From assembly GCA_021498095.1 (NCBI GenBank), contig JAIZWK010000001.1, forward strand, positions 2,640,001 to 2,672,000: 32,000 nt of DNA, written 5' to 3'. The translations under genes were made by a program, and so were the position numbers. Position 1 is the first letter of the stretch. Each line of letters starts with the position of its first letter. Below, piece by piece: positions 3,251-31,969 of this stretch. The notes beneath the pieces are model-generated. The model saw only the letters and a program-made list of their open reading frames with translations, ran no database searches and was not told where the DNA came from. Source of the stretch: Candidatus Harpocratesius repetitus (GTDB taxonomy: Archaea; Asgardarchaeota; Lokiarchaeia; Sigyniarchaeales; Promethearchaeaceae).

Positions 3251-3889
3251 TTATGTGAAAAAGTATCGAATTAAATTCACAAATTGTGAAAAATATGAAT
3301 TGAGAAAATGCTATATTATATTAATTTTTCTTATTTCTATCTTCAATTATTTTTTATTTTAAGAGCCTTTATCAACATTTGATAGATTAATAAAAAAATA
3401 AAAATCCTGCATAATTTACGCATTTACCAATATTCCATCCAAATTTGAAATTTGTCGATCAAAAATTTAGAACTTTTTTTATCATTTTCAACTATAATTT
3501 GATTAAAAATAGTCAAAAATCAACCCATAATTATATTTTTTAAAGTTCATCTTTGCCGACTGAAATAATTCTTGGATAAGTTTGATTATTGTCGGAAAAT
3601 GAAAGAATAAAATGAAAATTCTGTCAAAAATAAAGAAGTTGCTAGAACCTCTTAAAAAAGACACTCAATTTTTCTATTTAATTTGGATAACTTTTATTAA
3701 GATGCTGTCTTTTTATATCTTGTTTGGAAAATAATGTTTACTTCAAGATAATAGGAATGTGTTTCAATTTTTTCTTACTTCTCGCAAGAAAGCCCAATTG
3801 AATTTCATCTCCACCAAATTTTGTGTTGACTGTTTTTCAAGCCTCTTGTTCGTTTATGAACAAGAATTTAATAAAGTAAGTGAAATAAT

Positions 3890-9525: not shown

Positions 9526-10854
9526 ATGAAAATAGTTTTTGTAATCACTTCCCGGGGAACTGTTGCTATTACAGTTAATTCAGGTGATTCGGTTAATGAT
9601 TTAATTAAACGAGTGAGGGAAGCTTCTGGAGTGAATTATCAATCTTTTGATCTTTATACCCCACTTGGTATAATTAGTAATGATAATTCAGATATTTATA
9701 ATTTGATTAATGATCAATCAAAAGTAAAATTTTTTGAGAAGGATTTTATTATAAATTTAGAAATTGATAAAAGAATTAAAGGGTCTAATTATGGAATTTT
9801 GTATCTCGATAATATAAAATTAACAAAAGTACCAATGGACAAAATCCAAATTCTAAATAATAAAGAAAATATACGTGTACTCAATTTATCTTATAATCGA
9901 CTTGGAATTTTACCAGAGAGCATAGGTAATCTTAAGTACCTTCAACAACTGAGAATAAACGATAATGAATTAAGTTCTCTCCCTGAGAGTATAGCTAAGC
10001 TCACCAACCTACAGATATTAGGAATTAATTATAATCTATTGTCTTTTCTCCCAGGAAGTATAGGAAATCTAGTTAACCTTACATACCTTAGTCTAGAAGG
10101 TAATTTATTAACTACTCTTCCAGAGAGTATAGGTAAGCTTGTCAACCTTAAAGAATTGAATTTAGAAGGTAATAAAATAACTACTCTCCCAGAGAGTATT
10201 GGTGACTTAACTAACCTCCAAAAATTGTATATTAATAGAAATCAATTAAATTCTATACCTGAGAGTATAAGTAAGCTTGTCAATCTTAAAGAATTGTATT
10301 TAGAATATAATGAATTAACTACTCTCCCAGAGAGTATAGGTAAGCTTGTCAACCTTAAAGAATTGTATTTAGAATATAATGAATTAACTACTCTCCCAGA
10401 GAGTATAGGTGACTTAACTAACCTCCAAAAATTGTATATTCATAGTAATCAATTAAATTCTATACCTGAAAATATCGGAGATTTAACTAACCTTCAAGAA
10501 TTTCAAATTAATAATAATCAGCTAAAGTCTCTTCCCGAAAGTATAGGAAAGTTAACTAATCTCCAAAAATTGTATATTCATGGTAATCAATTAAATTCTA
10601 TACCAGAGAATATAGATAATCTGAGGTCCCTCAAAAGTTTATATATTACGAATAACAAATTAACATCTCTTCCAGAGACCCTGGGTAATTTGGCTAAGTT
10701 GACTTATCTTGATATTGAGGATAATAAAATAGTTAAATTGCCGGATAGTATAACTAAATTGAAGCTAAAAACCTTAAATATACAAAGAAATCCACTTAAA
10801 TTATCAAGAAAGATCAAAAAATGGATTAAATCAATAGATAATGTGCATCGATAA
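9526..10854 (+). CDS. Leucine-rich-repeat protein with an N-terminal ubiquitin-like domain
   Basis: About 14 LRRs of 23 aa (LxxLPESIGxLxNLxxLxLxxN). The N-terminus from ATG 9526 aligns without gaps to ubiquitin residues 1-36. The ATG start is preferred over the track's GTG at 9481. LRR certain; UBL probable. Confidence 0.85.
   Translation: MKIVFVITSRGTVAITVNSGDSVNDLIKRVREASGVNYQSFDLYTPLGIISNDNSDIYNLINDQSKVKFFEKDFIINLEIDKRIKGSNYGILYLDNIKLTKVPMDKIQILNNKENIRVLNLSYNRLGILPESIGNLKYLQQLRINDNELSSLPESIAKLTNLQILGINYNLLSFLPGSIGNLVNLTYLSLEGNLLTTLPESIGKLVNLKELNLEGNKITTLPESIGDLTNLQKLYINRNQLNSIPESISKLVNLKELYLEYNELTTLPESIGKLVNLKELYLEYNELTTLPESIGDLTNLQKLYIHSNQLNSIPENIGDLTNLQEFQINNNQLKSLPESIGKLTNLQKLYIHGNQLNSIPENIDNLRSLKSLYITNNKLTSLPETLGNLAKLTYLDIEDNKIVKLPDSITKLKLKTLNIQRNPLKLSRKIKKWIKSIDNVHR
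10123..10467 (+). repeat. Near-identical 69-bp LRR-encoding units
   Basis: 10261-10329 vs 10330-10398 are 67/69 identical; 10192-10260 vs 10399-10467 are 66/69 identical. Confidence 0.9.
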
Positions 10855-10906: not shown

Positions 10907-12652
10907 ATGAAGATAAAAAAAGCGACCATTGTCAAAAATGCAATAATATATACTCTTGATCAGAGCAACTCAATTTTTGAATCAATGCTGATTATCGATG
11001 GATTTATAGAAAAATTAGGAACAATAGAAGAAATTGATGAATTTTGGAGAGATTATTATAAGAAAAATAATTCTTTAAAATTCAATGTTGAACTAAATGA
11101 AATTGATTTACAAAAGAAATTCGTCTATCCAGGCTTTATTGATGCGCATCTTCATCCTATTACTTGTATTGTAAATAATACATGCTTTAATTGTGAAAAT
11201 CTCCGTTCATTTGAAGAATTTGCACAAGGATTAAAGAATTTTGCTAGAAAACTTTTCACAATAAATACACCTGTATCATCAGGTGAAAATCAAAAATATT
11301 CTTCAGATCAGTGGATAGTCGCGATTAAGTTCAATGAACAAAATTTCACCGATCCTAATCAACGAATTCTACCAAATCGCTGGAATTTAGATGATGTTAT
11401 TTCTTCACATCCTATAGTGGTTTATCGCTACGATTTACATATTGTTTGTTTGAACTCAAGAGCTTTAGAAATTCTTGGAATAGATAATTCACCTTATTCT
11501 TTAGATTCAAGACATAAAATTCAATATGGAGAAATTAGAGTGGATAAAAATGGCATTCCAAATGGGCTCTTAACCGAAGATGCGATGAAACTACTCGATC
11601 CTATGATTCCCATACCAACTAAATCTGAATTAATAGATGCGATGAATAGATTTTCTTTTGAATTAGGATCTCATGGGATAACTGCTATAGGTGCAGTAGT
11701 TTCAGAGCAATATCTCCCAATATTAGAAAAGTTGGATTTTTTTAAATCTTTTCCCCAAGATGTCGCTTTTTATTTCAATGTTAAAGAAATCTCTAATGTA
11801 ATTTCGTTACGAAAGAAAATCCAAGTAATTTCATCAAAAAAAGATCACATTTCTGTAAATGGATTAAAAAGATTTATGGATGGCTCGTTTGGAGCAAAAA
11901 CCGCTTGGTTATATCAACCTTACAATAATTTAGGAGAAACGGATACAAAAACAAACGATACTTTTTTATCGGGAATGTGTGCTACAAATTTGGAACAATT
12001 AGCAAGGGATCTTAAAGAAGCTTCTAAACAAGAATTAGATGTAATGGTGCATGCGATAGGAGATCGCGCTAATAAAGAACTTGTTGCATTGATTTCTAAT
12101 CATTGGAAAAAATTTAATCTAAAATCTAATAAACATAATTTTCCTCGTATTAGAATTGAACATGCATCAATGTTGTCAATCGAAGTTATTAGAGAAATGG
12201 CCAAGTTAAATATAATTCCTGTATCGCAACCGGAATTTATCCGAAGTGAATCTTCTTGGTTGATTGATTATATTGGAGACGAGAGAATAAAGATAACATA
12301 TCCTTTTCGAGATTTAATTAAACATGGATTACCTTTAGCAGGAGCATCAGATGCGCCAGTTGAATCTTTAAGTGTTTTGCGTGCTTTACAAGATTGCATT
12401 TTACGTTTTGGATTAAATCCCAGTCAATCAATTTCTATACAAGATGCACTTAAATTATATACTCAAAATGCAGCTTATGCAATTCATCAAGAACATATAA
12501 GAGGAACGTTAGAAAAGGGAAAAATCGCAGATTTTATTGTTTTCAAAGATGATCTTTTAAAAATAAACCCAAAAGAAATAGATAAAATAAAAATTTATCA
12601 AACATACCATAGAGGTATTTGTATTTTTGATAATAATATAAAAAGAGCTTAG
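10907..12652 (+). CDS. Amidohydrolase family 3 (YtcJ-like) metal-dependent hydrolase
   Basis: PGFIDAHLH, KRFMDGSFGAKTA, VHAIGDRA, RIEHAS, ASDAP and GTLEKGKIADF. Confidence 0.92.
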   Translation: MKIKKATIVKNAIIYTLDQSNSIFESMLIIDGFIEKLGTIEEIDEFWRDYYKKNNSLKFNVELNEIDLQKKFVYPGFIDAHLHPITCIVNNTCFNCENLRSFEEFAQGLKNFARKLFTINTPVSSGENQKYSSDQWIVAIKFNEQNFTDPNQRILPNRWNLDDVISSHPIVVYRYDLHIVCLNSRALEILGIDNSPYSLDSRHKIQYGEIRVDKNGIPNGLLTEDAMKLLDPMIPIPTKSELIDAMNRFSFELGSHGITAIGAVVSEQYLPILEKLDFFKSFPQDVAFYFNVKEISNVISLRKKIQVISSKKDHISVNGLKRFMDGSFGAKTAWLYQPYNNLGETDTKTNDTFLSGMCATNLEQLARDLKEASKQELDVMVHAIGDRANKELVALISNHWKKFNLKSNKHNFPRIRIEHASMLSIEVIREMAKLNIIPVSQPEFIRSESSWLIDYIGDERIKITYPFRDLIKHGLPLAGASDAPVESLSVLRALQDCILRFGLNPSQSISIQDALKLYTQNAAYAIHQEHIRGTLEKGKIADFIVFKDDLLKINPKEIDKIKIYQTYHRGICIFDNNIKRA

Positions 12653-12661
12653 AGATCCTTA

Positions 12662-12853
12662 TTATTTTTGAGATTGTTCATGACACCATTGCTCTTTGCA
12701 TTGGCGGGAGCAAAATTTGTGCTCAGGTGGATCTTGGCTGATATTTTTATGTACAACATGTCGTTTTGGAAGAGGTTTTCCGCAATAATTGCATTTTTCG
12801 GGCTGTTTAATTGATTTTGGTAATATGATATCAGAAAAATTTGATACTCCCAT
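12662..12853 (-). CDS. Small TRASH/MYM(FCS)-type zinc-finger protein
   Basis: CNYCGK...HKFCSRQCK (CxxC...FCSxxC). Confidence 0.75.
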   Translation of the reverse strand: MGVSNFSDIILPKSIKQPEKCNYCGKPLPKRHVVHKNISQDPPEHKFCSRQCKEQWCHEQSQK

Positions 12854-12985
12854 AAAAAATTTAATATGAAATTATTCTTTAAATTATCGAAAAAACTTCA
12901 AGTGTGCTTCAACAGCAAAAAAATTTTTGATCAAACTTAATCATTGATCGCTTAATTTATATAGATCTTTCCTAAATTTAATTCT

Positions 12986-13711
12986 ATGGTGACCATCTCC
13001 GAAATATCACGCCTTCTTGGAGTTACTCCCGCAACTCTGCGCAGATGGGATAGAAACGGATACCTCGTTCCAAAAAGAACTTTTGGAAATCACCGCCGAT
13101 ACTCATGGGAACAGTTGGCGGATTTTCTGCTCGAATCGGTTAATCTACCCTGCTAACAAGCGGAGGAAACTGTAAAATCGACCTATATCTATGCAAGAGT
13201 TTCATCGTTCAAGCAGAAAAAGGATGGAAATCTTGACAGACAGGTCGAACGATTGAAAAAATATCACAAAGAGCATTTTACTGATGAATCACCTGCCAAA
13301 GTAATTAAAGAATACGGCTCTGGACTGAATCCGATGCGTCGAGGGTTGTGGCGGCTGCTGAAGCAAAATGAGCAGAGGAAGATGGCACGGGTGCTGATTG
13401 CTTATAAAGATCAGCTCACAAGATTCGGATTTCCGTTTTTAGAATATGTTTGCAGAATTTACGATGTGCCGATAATCGAGGTGGAGCGTGGATTGAATAC
13501 TTCTTTAGAGGAACAGCTGGTGACGGATTTGATGGCGCTGATTGCGTCGTTTTCGGGCAAATTGTATCAGTTGCGGGCGCTTCAGGCAAAAGGCTACGAT
13601 AGAGAGGAGAAAGAGCGGGAAAGAATTGATGCCATTATCGAGAGGTATGTTAGGAGGGATTCGGAAAGAAAACTGAGCAAGTTGACAAGTTATGGAGTCT
13701 ACGAGAAGTAA
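12986..13711 (+). pseudogene. tnpA: IS607-family serine recombinase TnpA with an in-frame TAA at 13154-13156
   Basis: ATG 12986 begins a MerR-like HTH (ISEISRLLGVTPATLRRWDRNG...GNHRRY), then TAA, then in the same frame YARVSS, LDRQVERL, GSGLN, YKDQLTRFGF and LVTDLMALIASFSGKLY. The catalytic YARVS segment has no start codon of its own. Confidence 0.9.
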
Positions 13712-13845
13712 AAGAGATTCCGATTGAATTTACCCATAACCCAAGGCTGTGGATTAACATTTCAAATCTTCCTCACATCCCTCATATTTCCTTTCTACCG
13801 ATTGAGCTTTGGGACTGCACCCAGTTTGAAAACAGCGAATCATTC

Positions 13846-14100
13846 ATGTATGATTTTGATTCTTTCATCCATCCCCGAAAGCAAGAGAATATCGAGCGTT
13901 ATAAGGAGTGGGAGAAGCTATTTTTTGAAGAATACGGGTTTGAAACAGTTTGGACCGCTGAGCGGATTAAATTTATGGATTATGCGTTAATTGCTGCGGA
14001 GCAAATTCCAGAAAAAGAACTGCGTGAAGAATTTATAAGGTGGGCAAAAAAGTTCAGACCCAGATTTAAATTGAAAAGCGGTTATGAATTGATAATGTAA
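13846..14100 (+). CDS. Hypothetical protein; frame is open from 13654
   Basis: 84-aa ORF with the same GC-rich composition as tnpA and 64 more sense codons upstream without an ATG. Confidence 0.55.
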   Translation: MYDFDSFIHPRKQENIERYKEWEKLFFEEYGFETVWTAERIKFMDYALIAAEQIPEKELREEFIRWAKKFRPRFKLKSGYELIM

Positions 14101-14112
14101 ATCTTCTGATAA

Positions 14113-15679
14113 ATGAGAACAACACATTTAGAAAAGTCAACAAGTAAAATTAAAATAAAAACCTCGGATACTAATCAAATATCTTTATCAGAATATACAG
14201 CCAGAAAGAATTTTGAGCAGAGAAAATTGATAAAACATTCAAACAGTACTGTAAAAGCGGTTGCTCTACTTCAGCAGAAAAAAAACCAGATAGAAAATTA
14301 ATTTAAAATTGAGGGTATTTTAAATTTCAAAGATTCGAATTTTTTCATTTCATCATCTTAATTCTTCCGACTCAAATCTAAAATATCCTTCCTTATTTTT
14401 TGTCGATTTTACCAAGGTGCTAAATTTAAGATATGTAATTCAAAAATTATAATAAAATAGACATTAGATTGAAGAATTTATAAACAGGATGGTAAATTTT
14501 TAATAAATTTTTTGAAAAAATCGAGTTCGACAAAAAAAGAATTGCGATATTTCAGATATAAGTCGGATATATATGAATGATATTCAAAAAAGCGTTTAAA
14601 TTAAAAAAGATAAAATATCCTCAATTAAAAATATTAAAGAATGTACTCGAGCTTCCTAATACTTACTCAAAAAATCATATATGAAGCGCGTCATCAATAA
14701 TAAATCAACCAGATTAAACCGAAACATTGCCCATAATTTATTCCGTGCTGTTTTCCGTTCATCTGAAGCGTCAATTAATCACTGTCTGCAAAATGAAGAT
14801 CTAAAGCAATCGGTAATATCGTATATACAGAATCTTTGGCCTTCTGTTGGATCTCAATTTTTCATACACGAAAACAATCCTAATTCATCATTTATCAAAA
14901 ATATTTTCAAAATGCATTCCCGAATCAATTTTGAAAGCTTATGGAAGTATAAAGCGACCAAAGGTGAATCATTTGCTCTTGAAAAAGTCCGATGGCTTCG
15001 CGGCTTACTACCTGATTACACCCAAGAAATGGGAAGCATGAAGGGAATAAATGTGAAATATGTTCCTGCAGCCTATACTTCAAAACTGAGCATAAACGGA
15101 ACCGAAGGCAAAAAAGGATTTCTCATGGCTTTTCATAATAATAGAATATTTCCTGTAAAAGGACCGGGATATACTGTCAATTTTAATGAATTTGCTGCTT
15201 TTATTTTGAAAAATCCTGATAAATACGAGTATAATTTTACGGCTCCTACAAAAATAATTGAATCATGTAAAAATTACTTCAATTCTAAAAAAAATAAAAC
15301 TAATATCGTCTTTGTTTCAGCTTCTCAAGGAAATACGTTTTTTTATGAAAATACAGTTAAATCTGAAAATGATGAAAAACCAAAAGCAGAAAAATTTATC
15401 GTCGATCGAGATGTTAACGGCGCTTAAAACATTGCCAGATATAATAAATTGAAATATTTTGAAGAAACGGTAAATTTGCAGATTGATCGATACAAAAATA
15501 CAGGAAAAAGAAATTCAAAATCCATGAAAAGTGGACAAATAAACTTTTCAGCGGTTTGCTTAAGGTTTTGGATACATCCTTCGGCAGTTATCATCCATAC
15601 GGTTCGTTATAATGGTTCGATTGGCGTGAATTATCAAATCAAATCAAACCTAAAATTTTATCAACTTAGAAACGAATAA
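14113..15679 (+). pseudogene. tnpB: Decayed TnpB/Cas12-like RuvC nuclease
   Basis: GINVKYVPAAYTSK (15044-15085) and DRDVNGA*NIAR (15404 onward), with the frame continuing past TAA 15425-15427 to 15679. Further in-frame stops and probable frameshifts lie upstream of 14681. The 5' limit is uncertain. Confidence 0.72.
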
Positions 15680-15699: not shown

Positions 15700-16347
15700 A
15701 TGAATTTAAAAAAATTTATTCGGTTTCTTTTAAAATCTAGCATCAAAATTATTTCTTTATCTATAACACTTACGTTATTAATTGGAAGTATTTCAATTTT
15801 TACAGTTCTCTCTGATCCTGCGAACATCACGGCAGATTGGGAGAATATGGATATAAATATTGGTCCTACTGGAAATCGATTTGCTTTAAACATGACCTTC
15901 GAAAATTCAGGTTATTTTGATTTCGATAATTTCACAATATTTGTACAATTCACTCTTGAGAATAAAACATCTCATGAAAATTTCACAATTTTAAACGAAA
16001 TATTATTCCAAGACACACTAACATCCAAAAATCAACATGTTCTTCATCTTCTTGCTTTAGAAAGTGATTTCCAAACATTGCATTTGTTAAGTGATAATGG
16101 AAATTCTTGGAATGATCCAGACGTTCAAGTTTATATAGATAATGGAACAATATCTGAAGAAAATGCGTCAATTTTTGTTTACCCATATCTTCTTTGGCAT
16201 TATGATATTCACTTTTCACTAGGTATTCAATCTACGTATTTCTTAAACCTAATTACAATTGGTTTGCAAATTCAGTATCTTTATACCTATGATGATGCAG
16301 GTTTTACTTCAGATTATCCTACTTACAAAGATTCATTATTACCCTAA
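15700..16347 (+). CDS. Membrane-anchored exported protein (possibly LEA_2/Ig-like beta fold)
   Basis: N-terminal TM helix followed by a beta-rich region (ALNMTFENSGYFDFDNFTIFVQF). The fold is a guess. Confidence 0.7.
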   Translation: MNLKKFIRFLLKSSIKIISLSITLTLLIGSISIFTVLSDPANITADWENMDINIGPTGNRFALNMTFENSGYFDFDNFTIFVQFTLENKTSHENFTILNEILFQDTLTSKNQHVLHLLALESDFQTLHLLSDNGNSWNDPDVQVYIDNGTISEENASIFVYPYLLWHYDIHFSLGIQSTYFLNLITIGLQIQYLYTYDDAGFTSDYPTYKDSLLP

Positions 16348-16457
16348 AAAAAAGCAGAGTGTAATTAAAAAAACTAAGAATTATAAATAAAATTTAACAA
16401 CAAATCAAAAGGGATATAATTATCGGATACAGAAAGGAAAAGGATGAGAGCTAAAAT

Positions 16458-17102
16458 ATGAATAAGGTTGTAGGAAATATTATCAAGGGATTTTTTGCAG
16501 CAGTAATGAATTGGTTCGTAAAAGTTACTATTCCAATTGCTATTTTTACCTACCTCTCGGGATACGACGTTTTAGGAATTGAAATTTTTTCTGAAGAAAA
16601 GGTAGCAATAATCACTTATTGGATCTGGGGTGTTGGAATTATAACTACTGCGATTCGATTTTGGGTTGCCAGTAGTCCGAAGTATTCAGTTAGAAAAGCT
16701 ATTGCAGAGATTTTTCTCTTAGCTGCAAATCTCTTTTATATGTATGTGTACCGTTTTTCGGGGATAATGGAATTTGAGAATATATCAATTTCACTTACTG
16801 AAAAACTTAGTACTTCCATATCTTTGAATTTAAACAATTTAATTTATGCATCTATGGGACTTATGGGTTTAAATATCATTATCTATTTGTATGATTTAAT
16901 TTTGGCGATTTTTAGCCCAATTGAACCAAATTCTAATAAAAATGAGAAAGAAATCAAGAAATCACAAAAAAAATCTAAAAAAAGAAATACAAATAGAAAC
17001 GTGTCCAAGAGTAAAAAGAAAAATACTATGAATTACGAACATGAATCTAAAAGTCATAAAAAATTAGAATATAAATCAGTATTTGGTGATGATATAAAAT
17101 GA
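16458..17102 (+). CDS. Hypothetical membrane protein (about 4 TM) with a Lys-rich tail
   Basis: Hydrophobic segments and a KKSQKKSKKR tail. Confidence 0.75.
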   Translation: MNKVVGNIIKGFFAAVMNWFVKVTIPIAIFTYLSGYDVLGIEIFSEEKVAIITYWIWGVGIITTAIRFWVASSPKYSVRKAIAEIFLLAANLFYMYVYRFSGIMEFENISISLTEKLSTSISLNLNNLIYASMGLMGLNIIIYLYDLILAIFSPIEPNSNKNEKEIKKSQKKSKKRNTNRNVSKSKKKNTMNYEHESKSHKKLEYKSVFGDDIK

Positions 17103-27630: not shown

Positions 27631-27740
27631 TCTTGATTTCTCTTGATTTCTCTTAAATTCTCTTAAATTCTCTTAAATTCTCTTAAATTCTCTTGATTTC
27701 TCTTGATTTCTCTTGATTTCTCTTGATTTCTCTTAAATTC
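27631..27740. repeat. Intergenic 10-bp minisatellite x11 with two unit variants
   Basis: X=tcttgatttc, Y=tcttaaattc; order XXYYYYXXXXY; between convergent genes. Confidence 0.97.
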
Positions 27741-29080: not shown

Positions 29081-29547
29081 ATTAATCCTCCATTTTAATT
29101 TTAAGATGCGATCGTATTTGAAGATTTAGGTCTAAAACGCTTGAATTATTGTAGTTTTAATCAGAATTTGAAATTCTCGTCATTAACGCTCATTATGATG
29201 AAAAATCTATGATAATTTGCAATACTTGCAACTTAATTTCTTCCTATAACGAGATGAGAAAACTGGTTCTCATTTTGAAAGATTTCAAAATAATATGAAT
29301 GAAGGTAAAATAAAAAAAAAAAGTTAATTTAATTGAACAAAATCTTGATAATGATAATGATAATTTTTTACTGATCAAATTTGATCAACCACTATCATTG
29401 GTGGTTAAATTAATAATAGATTGAAAGTTTATAATGTTTTGGAAAATATTTGAAGAGATTACGATTGAAACAAGCCAAATATTCACTGATTTGGCTATTT
29501 CAAAGAAATGGAATGAAAAAAAATATTAAAATTTCGGAAATATTATG

Positions 29548-29890: not shown

Positions 29891-31969
29891 CTATCTAATC
29901 AATGAACCATTAGGAATTCCATTCTCAGGACGAACTAACGTAGTTCCTTTCTTTTTAAGATCTACAGCTAATAACATTCCATGAGAAGTGATTCCTCTAA
30001 TTTTTTTAGGTGCTAAATTGGAAAGAACAACAATTTGGGTGCCAATTAATTCTTCAGCTTTATAGGTTTTTCCAATACCTGCAACTATTGTTCGAAGGGA
30101 TTCTTCACCTAAATCGACTTGAAGTTTTATTAAATGAGATGTATCAGGAACTTTTTCAGCATCAACAATCGTGCCTGTTCGAAGATCTAATTTGGAAAAA
30201 TCTTTATAATCAATTACAGGTTTTGCTGAAGATGATGCCTTATTTTCCGAAGAGGATTGAACTCCATGAATTGTATCTAATTTAGTTTGTAGTTCTTTAA
30301 TATCCAATTTTTGAAATAATGGTTTTGCTGGTGGAATTTTCCTACCTGCTTCAACTTTTAATTCTGAGGCTGAATCCCAAGAAATTGATTTAATTGATTC
30401 CTTACTTCCCAAAGCTTGAAGGATTTTTTCTCCAATATTAGGAATAAATGGAGAAAGAAGAATTGATAGAGTTCGAACCATTTGTGCAGCTAAATAAAAG
30501 GTGTGTCCTGCTTTTGTTTTATCTGTCTTGATTATTTTCCAAGGTGCTTTATTGTTAATATAGACATTTCCTACGCGCGCAATCTTAATTATTTCGTTCA
30601 GTGCTTCCTTCAAGTGAAAATGTTCTAAAAGATCTCCAACCTTACTTGGTGCAGATTTGATAGTATCAATTAAAATCTGATCTTCTTCATCAATATCTTC
30701 TGAATTGGGGCCATCTGGGATTTGTGAATCATATCGTTTGGTAATAAAGGATAAAGTGCGGTGTATGAAGTTTCCTATAATATCGTTAAGTTCAAGAACA
30801 TCATTTCCAAATTGACTCCATAAAAAGTTAGAATCTTGTTTTTCAGGACGATTTCTGAGTAGAGAATAACGCCAATATTCGACTGGGGCAATTTCTAGCG
30901 CTTCATTTATCCAAATTCCAACCTTACGTGATTTTGAAAACTTCTGATTTTCATAATTCAAAAATTCAGTGGAAGAGACATTAAATGGCATTGTAAACTG
31001 CTCTTCTGGAGGTAAATCTTTGTTATATGCTACTAACAAACCTGGAAAGATAATTAAATGGAAAATGATATTGTCTTTTCCAATAAAATAAACAGAACGA
31101 GTGTCTGGATCATGCCAAAATTTATCGAACAAGGTGGAATCTTTTTTAATTTCTTCCGCCCATTCTTTTACTGCTGATATATAACCAAGTACTGCCTCAA
31201 ACCAAACATAGATGCTTTTATCTTTAGCATCTTTAAAGGGTGCAGGAATTCCCCATTCTAAATCGCGTGTAATTGCTCGGCTTGGTAACCCTTCTTTTAG
31301 AAAGTTTAAAGACATTGTACGCGCATTAGCAGGAATATATTTGTTATTTTCAACAAAATTACGGATTCCATCTTCACATTTATTAAAATCTAAATACCAA
31401 TGAGTAGTTTCACGTTTTATTGGTGTCTTATGGCAATGTTTGCATTTGGGATCAATTAAATCTTCAGGTTCCAGAAGTTTTCCACAAGCATCGCATTGAT
31501 CACCTCGAGCATATTCAGAACCACAGTGTGGGCATATTCCAACGACGAATCTATCAGGCAAATAAAGTTTATCATGTTCGCAATAAAATACCTCTTGCGT
31601 CTTTGTCGAGACGAATCCATTCTTTTCTACTTGTCGATAAAAATCTTGAGTAAACTTAATATGGATAGGGTTATGTGTCTGAGTGTAATTATCATATGAA
31701 ATTTGCCATTTTTCAAAAAGATCTTTGATGATTTGGTGATTTTTTTGTGCAAGTTTTTCTGGCGTAGTGTTTTGTTCAATTGCAGAAACAGCTACTGGTG
31801 TTCCATGCACATCAGAACCAGACACAAAAACCACATCATCTCCTTTTAAGCGACAATAACGGGCAAAAACATCACTGGAAAGAACCGAACCAATCAAATT
31901 GCCAAGATGAGGGATTGCATTTACGTAAGGCCAGGCTGATGTGATCACCCATTTGCGTTTTTTACTCAT
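29891..31969 (-). CDS. metG: Methionine--tRNA ligase (archaeal type, with C-terminal tRNA-binding domain)
   Basis: PYVNAIPHLGN (HIGH), GSDVHG, zinc knuckle CPHC/CDAC/CKHC, YVWFEA, KFSKS (KMSKS) and a C-terminal OB domain DLRTGTIV...SHGMLLA. Confidence 0.98.
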   Translation of the reverse strand: MSKKRKWVITSAWPYVNAIPHLGNLIGSVLSSDVFARYCRLKGDDVVFVSGSDVHGTPVAVSAIEQNTTPEKLAQKNHQIIKDLFEKWQISYDNYTQTHNPIHIKFTQDFYRQVEKNGFVSTKTQEVFYCEHDKLYLPDRFVVGICPHCGSEYARGDQCDACGKLLEPEDLIDPKCKHCHKTPIKRETTHWYLDFNKCEDGIRNFVENNKYIPANARTMSLNFLKEGLPSRAITRDLEWGIPAPFKDAKDKSIYVWFEAVLGYISAVKEWAEEIKKDSTLFDKFWHDPDTRSVYFIGKDNIIFHLIIFPGLLVAYNKDLPPEEQFTMPFNVSSTEFLNYENQKFSKSRKVGIWINEALEIAPVEYWRYSLLRNRPEKQDSNFLWSQFGNDVLELNDIIGNFIHRTLSFITKRYDSQIPDGPNSEDIDEEDQILIDTIKSAPSKVGDLLEHFHLKEALNEIIKIARVGNVYINNKAPWKIIKTDKTKAGHTFYLAAQMVRTLSILLSPFIPNIGEKILQALGSKESIKSISWDSASELKVEAGRKIPPAKPLFQKLDIKELQTKLDTIHGVQSSSENKASSSAKPVIDYKDFSKLDLRTGTIVDAEKVPDTSHLIKLQVDLGEESLRTIVAGIGKTYKAEELIGTQIVVLSNLAPKKIRGITSHGMLLAVDLKKKGTTLVRPENGIPNGSLIR

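Follow-up and report, generated by a model that had tools for sequence, protein, structure and literature searches.

The question raised by this locus is from what kind of gene a nuclease-like fragment in the genome of Candidatus Harpocratesius repetitus is derived, and how it came to stand beside an IS607-type transposase gene. The window, meaning the whole stretch of 32,000 nucleotides that was analysed (GenBank assembly GCA_021498095.1, contig JAIZWK010000001.1, positions 2,640,001 to 2,672,000 of the forward strand), carries the interrupted remains of a TnpB/Cas12-type protein. The original prediction regarded these remains as a decayed nuclease gene of roughly 500 codons, beginning near 14113, linked to IS607, with a cysteine-poor insert in place of its zinc finger. 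Comparison with the rest of the genome leads to a different origin. Window positions 14137-15638 are very probably a dead relic of the 3' quarter of a giant TnpB/Cas12-type gene, joined to the tail of a foreign IS607-type element.

The parent gene can be recognised in an intact paralogue (P0002), located at 3.16 Mb in the same genome, 0.5 Mb from the relic. It encodes 2,942 amino acids and is free of stops (open frame 2,944 codons), and the window fragment (P0001) is 91% identical to the C-terminal part of this frame. The last ~550 residues of P0002 are a TnpB-like RuvC domain, in which the motifs GVDLGL (D2398), NRNIAHN, INFESL (E2579), RWLRG and AAYTSK, a 106-residue insert with one Cys, and DRDVNGAYNIARY (D2738) can be read in order; in the ~2,350 residues preceding this domain, Pfam finds nothing. 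P0002 is colinear with a metagenomic protein of 2,981 amino acids (P0003) over residues 30-2941, at 42% identity, and therefore the giant open reading frame (ORF) is a real conserved gene. Additionally, P0007 shares the N-terminal module (residues 233-952). The intact element is 12.6 kb long and of IS607 type, with both ends present and the giant gene in the tnpB position. On its own strand, the order is left end, tnpA (intact, 200 amino acids, MerR and Resolvase), a 340-residue zinc-ribbon protein on the opposite strand, a 406-residue AAA ATPase, the giant gene and the right end. Both ends are common to other elements of the genome. An AAA gene also lies directly upstream of the giant gene in the P0003 contig (48% identity) and the P0007 contig, and the 340-residue protein is kept in the P0003 contig at 38% identity.

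Pairwise alignment of the window to the intact coding sequence divides the relic into two parts, in which the following features are found:

14137-14310, + strand: relic part 1, codons 2419-2476 of the intact gene, a variable helical stretch after RuvC-I
14299-14301, + strand: in-frame TAA at codon 2473, residue R in the intact copy
14311-14626: insertion of a miniature inverted-repeat transposable element (MITE), ~316 bp, 23% GC, with terminal inverted repeats AATTGAGGGTA / TATCCTCAATT
14627-15638, + strand: relic part 2, codons 2477-2814 of the 2,942-codon intact gene, truncated at codon 2814
14657-14659, + strand: in-frame TAA replacing Lys2487
14732-14734, + strand: conserved His, in part 2
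14933-14935, + strand: RuvC-II Glu (INFESL), in part 2
14990, + strand: RWLRG(LL) motif, in the frame starting at 14681
15068-15085, + strand: AAYTSK, with the YTSK ending at 15085
15086-15403, + strand: one-Cys insert of 106 amino acids, between YTSK and DRD
15410-15412, + strand: RuvC-III Asp (DRDVNGA), followed by a TAA and NIARY
15425-15427, + strand: in-frame TAA replacing Tyr2743
15526/15527, + strand: 1-bp deletion at codon 2777
15610, + strand: in-frame TAA replacing Glu2805, reached in the true frame after the shift

The DNA identity of the relic to the intact gene is 82% in part 1 and 94% in part 2; within part 1, identity to the intact gene is 81-83%, and identity to a further relic at 2.511 Mb is 93-96%. 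A crude pN/pS (nonsynonymous relative to synonymous differences) of 0.49 was obtained between the relic and the intact copy. The relic lacks the RuvC-I Asp, whose equivalent (D2398) sits 21 codons upstream of the start of homology at codon 2419; the last 128 codons and the right end of the transposon are missing from it too. From the catalytic D...E...D triad it keeps only the E (14933) and the third D (15410). With its stops, frameshift, MITE and two truncated ends, it is a dead copy of TnpB/Cas12 type, as had been predicted; it can neither cut DNA nor move, and is ordinary genomic debris. Several other details of the original prediction are sound: the motifs RWLRGLL, GINVKYVPAAYTSK and DRDVNGA-TAA-NIARY are present in frame from 14681, and the stop at 14657-14659 is real. 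The single Cys of the insert was also read correctly, although the segment is 106 rather than 107 residues long. The RuvC-II Glu and RuvC-I Asp, which had been left unplaced, can now be assigned to 14933-14935 and to the missing D2398, respectively. The frame once followed to 15679 is out of register after the deletion at 15526/15527; the true frame meets the TAA at 15610, and homology ends at 15638. An apparent protein-level extension to 15711 in tblastn was rejected as a low-complexity run-on, since DNA homology stops at 15638. When the 248-residue ORF of the relic was used to search for homologues among longer proteins, no match was found.

The intact gene is contiguous across the site at which the MITE is inserted in the relic. 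The MITE family comprises more than 60 copies in the genome, AT-rich and ~320 bp long, with 88-97% identity (blastn). Two features assigned by the original prediction to the gene belong to this insertion instead. One is the "WED-like strand" read near 14473 (RIYKQDGKFLINF), which is MITE sequence outside the gene; the other is the stop at 14597-14599. MITE copies are also seen directly beside IS607 tails, for example at 2076122-2076445, and the congener G136 carries the MITE as well, at 91% identity.

The giant gene belongs to a small family. When 1.84 billion representatives were searched exhaustively by phmmer, the last 613 residues of P0002 being the query, only 15 proteins were returned, one of which (P0008) is the window's own 62-residue relic ORF, and none of which is a canonical TnpB. 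Intact relatives exist, and they are unusual, as the original prediction had supposed of the lineage. Giant family proteins range from 1,100 to 3,700 amino acids, and the family was found in 6 of 400 genomes of the phylum, mostly of the same taxonomic family; the query used for this 400-genome search did not find it in two congeners. A search of genome contigs with P0002 residues 2560-2800 gave no relative, and a search with the family alignment at near lengths gave only P0011. In the alignment of 12 members, the E, the RuvC-III R-D-x-N...N and a Y-T are invariant, the His and a K...W..G pattern are conserved, and those members that span the DLG motif retain its RuvC-I Asp. The search for RuvC homology that had been suggested as a check was positive: PF07282, formerly the OrfB zinc ribbon, matches all 12 members (best 3.2e-13), and PF22126 / C2c1_RuvC-like matches two. 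Against PDB, the family profile found only chains of Cas12b, TnpB, Cas12m, Cas12g and Cas12f, with a best E of 6e-4 (large Cas12b, 9kln). Moreover, hhalign against six canonical archaeal TnpBs from related genomes gave a probability of 88% and E 2.9e-6 over the region of the His helix, RuvC-II and YTS, and the language-model neighbours were C2c1_RuvC, TnpB and Cpf1 RuvC/NUC clusters. Membership of the giant family in the TnpB/Cas12 RuvC nuclease superfamily is well supported by these sequence comparisons. No canonical PF07282 TnpB was found in this genome (G000), compared with 28 of 61 genomes of the class that have one.

Between YTS(K) and (D)RD, where a zinc ribbon would be expected, the family has 95-330 residues, and this insert opens with a conserved E-G-x-K-G-F and closes with G-N. 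A C4 zinc ribbon is absent from the relic and the intact copy alike, each of which has a single Cys among the 106 residues that separate YTSK from DRD. P0012 and P0017 have Cys pairs (CxxC) just after YTSK and just before DRD, which indicates that the insert lies inside the ancestral zinc ribbon. Judged from sequence, most members later lost the zinc-ribbon cysteines, and the long cysteine-poor insert is a trait of the family. The original prediction was therefore right that the insert is characteristic of the lineage, and wrong that it replaces the zinc finger rather than sitting within it. Some large branches of TnpB are already known to have lost the zinc finger that stands between RuvC-II and RuvC-III (PMC10691335).

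Upstream of the relic, the window contains parts of an IS607-type element:

12909-13689, + strand: left end and tnpA of IS607 type (MerR-type helix-turn-helix and serine recombinase), broken by an in-frame TAA at 13154-13156
13690-14134, + strand: 3' part of a cargo ORF and a 34-nt shared tail, comprising the last ~137 codons (to 14100) of a 314-318-residue ORF of "family-A" IS607-type elements

The ORF pair at 12986-13711 is an IS607-type TnpA (Pfam MerR 2.9e-13, Resolvase 8.2e-13), and the segment with left end and tnpA recurs 17 more times in the genome as partial or full copies, for the most part at 84-94% identity (blastn). Full cargo ORFs end in ...KLKSGYELIM, and the shared tail is ATCTTCTGATAAATGAG...TTTAGAAAAG. 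The point 13689/13690 is an internal deletion junction, at which the window has lost 2-5 kb of cargo that other copies contain. In fuller copies, such as 340066-333838, the cargo tail lies 2-5 kb further from tnpA, behind genes for a membrane protein and a ~490-residue protein; the corresponding blastn copies, 340057-339277 and 334257-333838, stand 5 kb apart. By blastn against the genome the region is a mosaic, and the GC content is in line with this: 43% in the tnpA segment, 37% in the cargo tail, 27-32% in the relic, 31.4% in the giant coding sequence and 31% in the genome. The cargo proteins of family A have no similarity to the giant family, and on this ground the idea that they are a hidden TnpB was discarded. 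Because the cargo is unrelated and the deletion intervenes, the tnpA in the window is not the partner of the nuclease fragment, and their adjacency is secondary. The proposed IS607 link consequently holds for the intact copy, which lies between an IS607 tnpA and a right end, but not for the window, where tnpA comes from an element with other cargo. As a separate observation, the "orphan" frame after tnpA at window 13654-14100 is the C-terminal part of the 314-318-residue ORF, which is the last gene of 4-6-kb elements. Such elements stand at G000 333838-340066 and 3262510-3267390, and their cargo is without a checked Pfam match or TnpB similarity. As far as sequence can tell, family-A elements are IS607-type transposons with non-TnpB cargo.

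The origin of the whole block is indicated by its boundaries. In the congener G136 the site is empty, with the flanks 11861-12891 and 15708-16994 standing 174 bp apart, and therefore the whole 2.7-kb block, ~12892-15650, is an insertion. The transposon left end in the block lies at ~12909-12950; downstream of the relic no right-end core was found. Three further relics, at 1.334, 1.573 and 2.511 Mb, have the same junction of the transposon tail ...TTTAGAAAAG with codon 2419, and each is truncated at a different 3' point. Other remains of the giant gene are a relic at 3.888 Mb with a different junction (codons ~1896-1963), an older 3' relic at 4.026 Mb (codons 2781-2930, 61% amino acid identity) and a 565-bp derivative at 3.2866 Mb with left and right ends only. 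Judging from the shared junctions, the block probably arrived as a chimeric IS607-type transposon, which would have consisted of a left end, tnpA, unrelated cargo, the truncated 3' part of the giant gene and a right end. This chimera would have reached several sites, and its copies would have decayed differently at each.

The best surviving alternative, which is nevertheless rather unlikely, is that a complete 12.6-kb giant element once sat here, that a family-A IS607 element inserted into it at codon 2419, and that deletions then took the 5' 7 kb and the 3' end. The remains at 3.888, 4.026 and 3.2866 Mb, which represent other parts of the gene or its ends only, imply that full copies did decay in this genome, and the insertion relative to G136 is compatible with either history. 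However, an identical junction of transposon tail and codon 2419 at four unlinked loci means that the junction predates arrival here. In addition, no giant-gene sequence occurs upstream of 12909, and the left boundary of the inserted block is the left end of a family-A-type element, neither of which fits destruction in place.

A highly improbable reading is that of the original prediction, in which a stand-alone TnpB of ~500 codons began at about 14113 as the partner of the adjacent tnpA, carried a Nuc-like insert for a zinc finger, and was intermediate between TnpB and the large Cas12 effectors. The TnpB-type motifs, a weak PF07282 match, a tnpA immediately upstream and language-model neighbours that include Cas12a RuvC/NUC clusters are all consistent with it. 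Against it, and refuting its gene size and start, the intact homologue has 2,942 codons and its RuvC-I lies 21 codons upstream of the window's homology, which starts at 14137 (codon 2419). The ATG at 14113 belongs to the transposon tail, 14311-14626 is a MITE, tnpA comes from an element with other cargo, and relatives keep Cys pairs flanking the insert. Furthermore, no relative is shown to be complete near 500 amino acids: only P0011 (1,118 amino acids, 155-kb contig) and the intact gene lie on contigs reaching well beyond the gene at both ends, and short matches may be cut by contig ends. Least credible of all is that the 248-codon ORF at 14681-15427, which is open and starts at a Met that the intact protein also has, is still alive in shortened form, for instance as a domesticated fragment with RuvC-II and TNB, or has its TAA read through by a variant code, because RuvC-I is absent, the pN/pS of ~0.5 fits one constrained and one neutral lineage, and stop-codon recoding, although every in-frame stop is TAA, is rejected on account of TAAs replacing four different residues (R, K, Y, E) and of a frameshift, a MITE and two truncations beyond its rescue, TAA being the expected mutational stop at 31% genomic GC.

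Several results weigh against the reading of the fragment as a relic of a giant TnpB/Cas12-type gene that arrived by chimeric transposition. Alone, the window fragment matches PF07282 (Cas12f1-like TNB) with E 9.8e-5 and 22.9 bits, below the 26.3-bit cut-off, and all matches of the family to canonical TnpB/Cas12 are weak, too weak for its position in the tree to be read from them. AlphaFold2 models reached a predicted local distance difference test score (pLDDT) of 53.3 for P0002:2340-2800 (12 sequences) and 52.9 for P0002:2560-2800 (6 sequences), too poor to confirm the fold of the RuvC domain or of the insert. With the poor model, Foldseek against PDB gave a best E of 0.07 (none <= 0.001), with Cas12b/h/f/g among the top rows, and VIA-align wide gave long-helix matches with Z <= 9.2. 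Rfam at gathering thresholds has no match in the window. Looked up among sequencing runs, the relic was found in no RNA run, and in two DNA runs of a single sample, from which the assembly was probably made. The P0003 contig extends 10 kb upstream, and within that distance no tnpA stands beside the conserved module. A right end is kept in none of the four relics that share the codon-2419 junction, and so the chimeric history is read from the shared junctions only. Finally, identity is mosaic: between window 14137-15638 and G000 3159770-3160956 it is 77-83% up to ~14700 and 91-99% from 14701, and in the first part the preference of the 2.511 Mb relic is the other way round. Such a pattern is not accounted for by simple decay and suggests an exchange of the relic with the intact, live gene, by gene conversion or recombination. 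The similarity of the relic to TnpB/Cas12 is not due to chance, because its DNA is 94% identical to that of the intact gene and the family of that gene matches PF07282.

The 3' ends of the intact relatives, whose inspection had been proposed, yielded a conserved module and no CRISPR repeats around the intact copy. Downstream of the giant gene of this genome, and of those for P0003 and P0007 on their own contigs, ~190 nt are conserved far better than the proteins (24-47% identity). The module ends in AACCAN-loop-N'TGGTT, followed by TGATCAAGTTTGATCAG and then TAAAAAAT; its hairpin covaries, with the pair types C-G, A-U and G-C at one position. The same module closes other IS607-type elements of the genome, in which 13 cores were counted. 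With its covarying hairpin, it is compatible with a candidate guide RNA. The giant protein would then be a nuclease carried by the transposon, with an RNA from the 3' end as its guide, and by analogy with TnpB RNA guidance and nuclease activity are most likely properties of the intact protein. No CRISPR array (spaced repeats) occurs in the 32-kb window, as the original prediction had noted, nor in 18 kb around the intact gene, and no cas genes were found.

Other occurrences of the right end were also observed. A solo IS607-type right-end module stands on the - strand at window 29355-29540, adjoining the methionyl-tRNA synthetase gene (29891-31969, - strand); its core, GGTTGATCAAATTTGATCAGTAAAAAAT at 29363-29390, is the only core in the window. 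This is again the ~190-nt module found behind the intact giant gene and behind giant genes of other metagenomes, and its hairpin AACCAN...N'TGGTT covaries at the fourth pair. At G000 2615091-2616103, a ~1-kb IS607-type derivative carries a 129-residue ORF by the right end, with the tail GWLPKSFWNEKE... to be compared with GWLKKWNQ... of the giant protein, which hints that the 3' end of the gene and the right end travel together. In the P0003 and P0007 contigs (L016 1-8169 and L048 1-6717), the pair of AAA and giant genes stands beside a conserved unannotated cluster (~281, 108 and 320 amino acids), which includes a large internally repeated protein with weak C1q/tail-like hints and is absent from G000. 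Among the neighbours of P0003, PHROGs gave one weak tape-measure-like match, to a 110-residue protein. The cluster may represent a larger mobile element or virus.

Further repeats occur elsewhere in the window. A second MITE-like family is represented at 3315-3682, with ~38 genome copies at 79-98% identity. An imperfect tandem repeat of 69 bp (23 codons, ~8-11 units) occupies 9913-10676, just upstream of an amidohydrolase-like ORF (10907-12652), and by eye reads like leucine-rich repeats. The 10-bp tandem repeat TCTTGATTTC at 27631-27734 has 10.4 copies with 95% matches.

The relic is useful for correct annotation of the genome, and it leads to a family in which a ~400-residue TnpB core makes up the end of proteins as long as 3,700 residues, in IS607-type elements of Asgard-type archaea. 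From such relics comes direct evidence of three things: past mobility of the element, recombination between it and other IS607 elements, and its ongoing erosion by MITEs. It is possible, though this can only be put forward tentatively, that the giant proteins of 1,100-3,700 amino acids form an undescribed TnpB-type lineage that works with a dedicated AAA ATPase and an RNA from the conserved IS607-type right-end module. If so, no RNA-guided RuvC nuclease known would come near them in size, and they would be an enlargement of TnpB independent of, and parallel to, Cas12. The relics that carry the 3' part beside foreign cargo would then imply that the 3' part and the right end are a unit borrowed by other IS607 elements for moving. 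If the intact members are RNA-guided, they would also be relevant to the growth of small nucleases of transposons into large effectors and to the role of the adjacent AAA ATPase.

No description of such giant proteins was found by full-text searches of the literature, and comparison with known systems shows both likenesses and differences. The TnpB proteins of IS607 and IS200/IS605 (for example, ISDra2 TnpB, ~400 amino acids) are RNA-guided nucleases of OMEGA type (for obligate mobile element-guided activity). The giant family shares with them the order of RuvC-I Asp, His helix, RuvC-II Glu, YTS, zinc-ribbon/TNB position and D-x-N-A-A RuvC-III, and the intact copy follows a serine-recombinase tnpA of IS607 type and immediately precedes the right end. 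However, the giant protein is ~7x longer, with ~2,350 unrecognised residues in front; its zinc ribbon is split by the insert of 95-330 residues, and the cysteines are usually gone; the gene directly preceding it, for an AAA ATPase, is conserved; and similarity is so low that phmmer returns no canonical TnpB. In Cas12a, the Nuc domain is a long, zinc-free domain between RuvC-II and RuvC-III. The long zinc-free insert of the giant family has the same position, and to this likeness in placement come the Cas12b match in PDB, the two PF22126 matches and the Cpf1 RuvC/NUC neighbours; in contrast to these effectors, the giant genes occur in a transposon setting without a CRISPR array or cas genes. 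In 2023, TnpB/Cas12 diversity was surveyed, and that survey contains nothing longer than its largest Cas12b, of 1,888 amino acids (PMC10691335). In the same survey, the RIIIr-4 branch of TnpB has no C4 zinc finger and has His at the RuvC-III catalytic position (Altae-Tran et al. 2023, PMC10691335). The giant family resembles this branch in the loss of zinc-binding cysteines, and differs from it in adding a large insertion and keeping the RuvC-III Asp. The relic itself, with its truncations, stops, frameshift, MITE and junction to a transposon tail, is like any ordinary pseudogene riddled with insertion sequences and MITEs, and only its parent gene is unusual.

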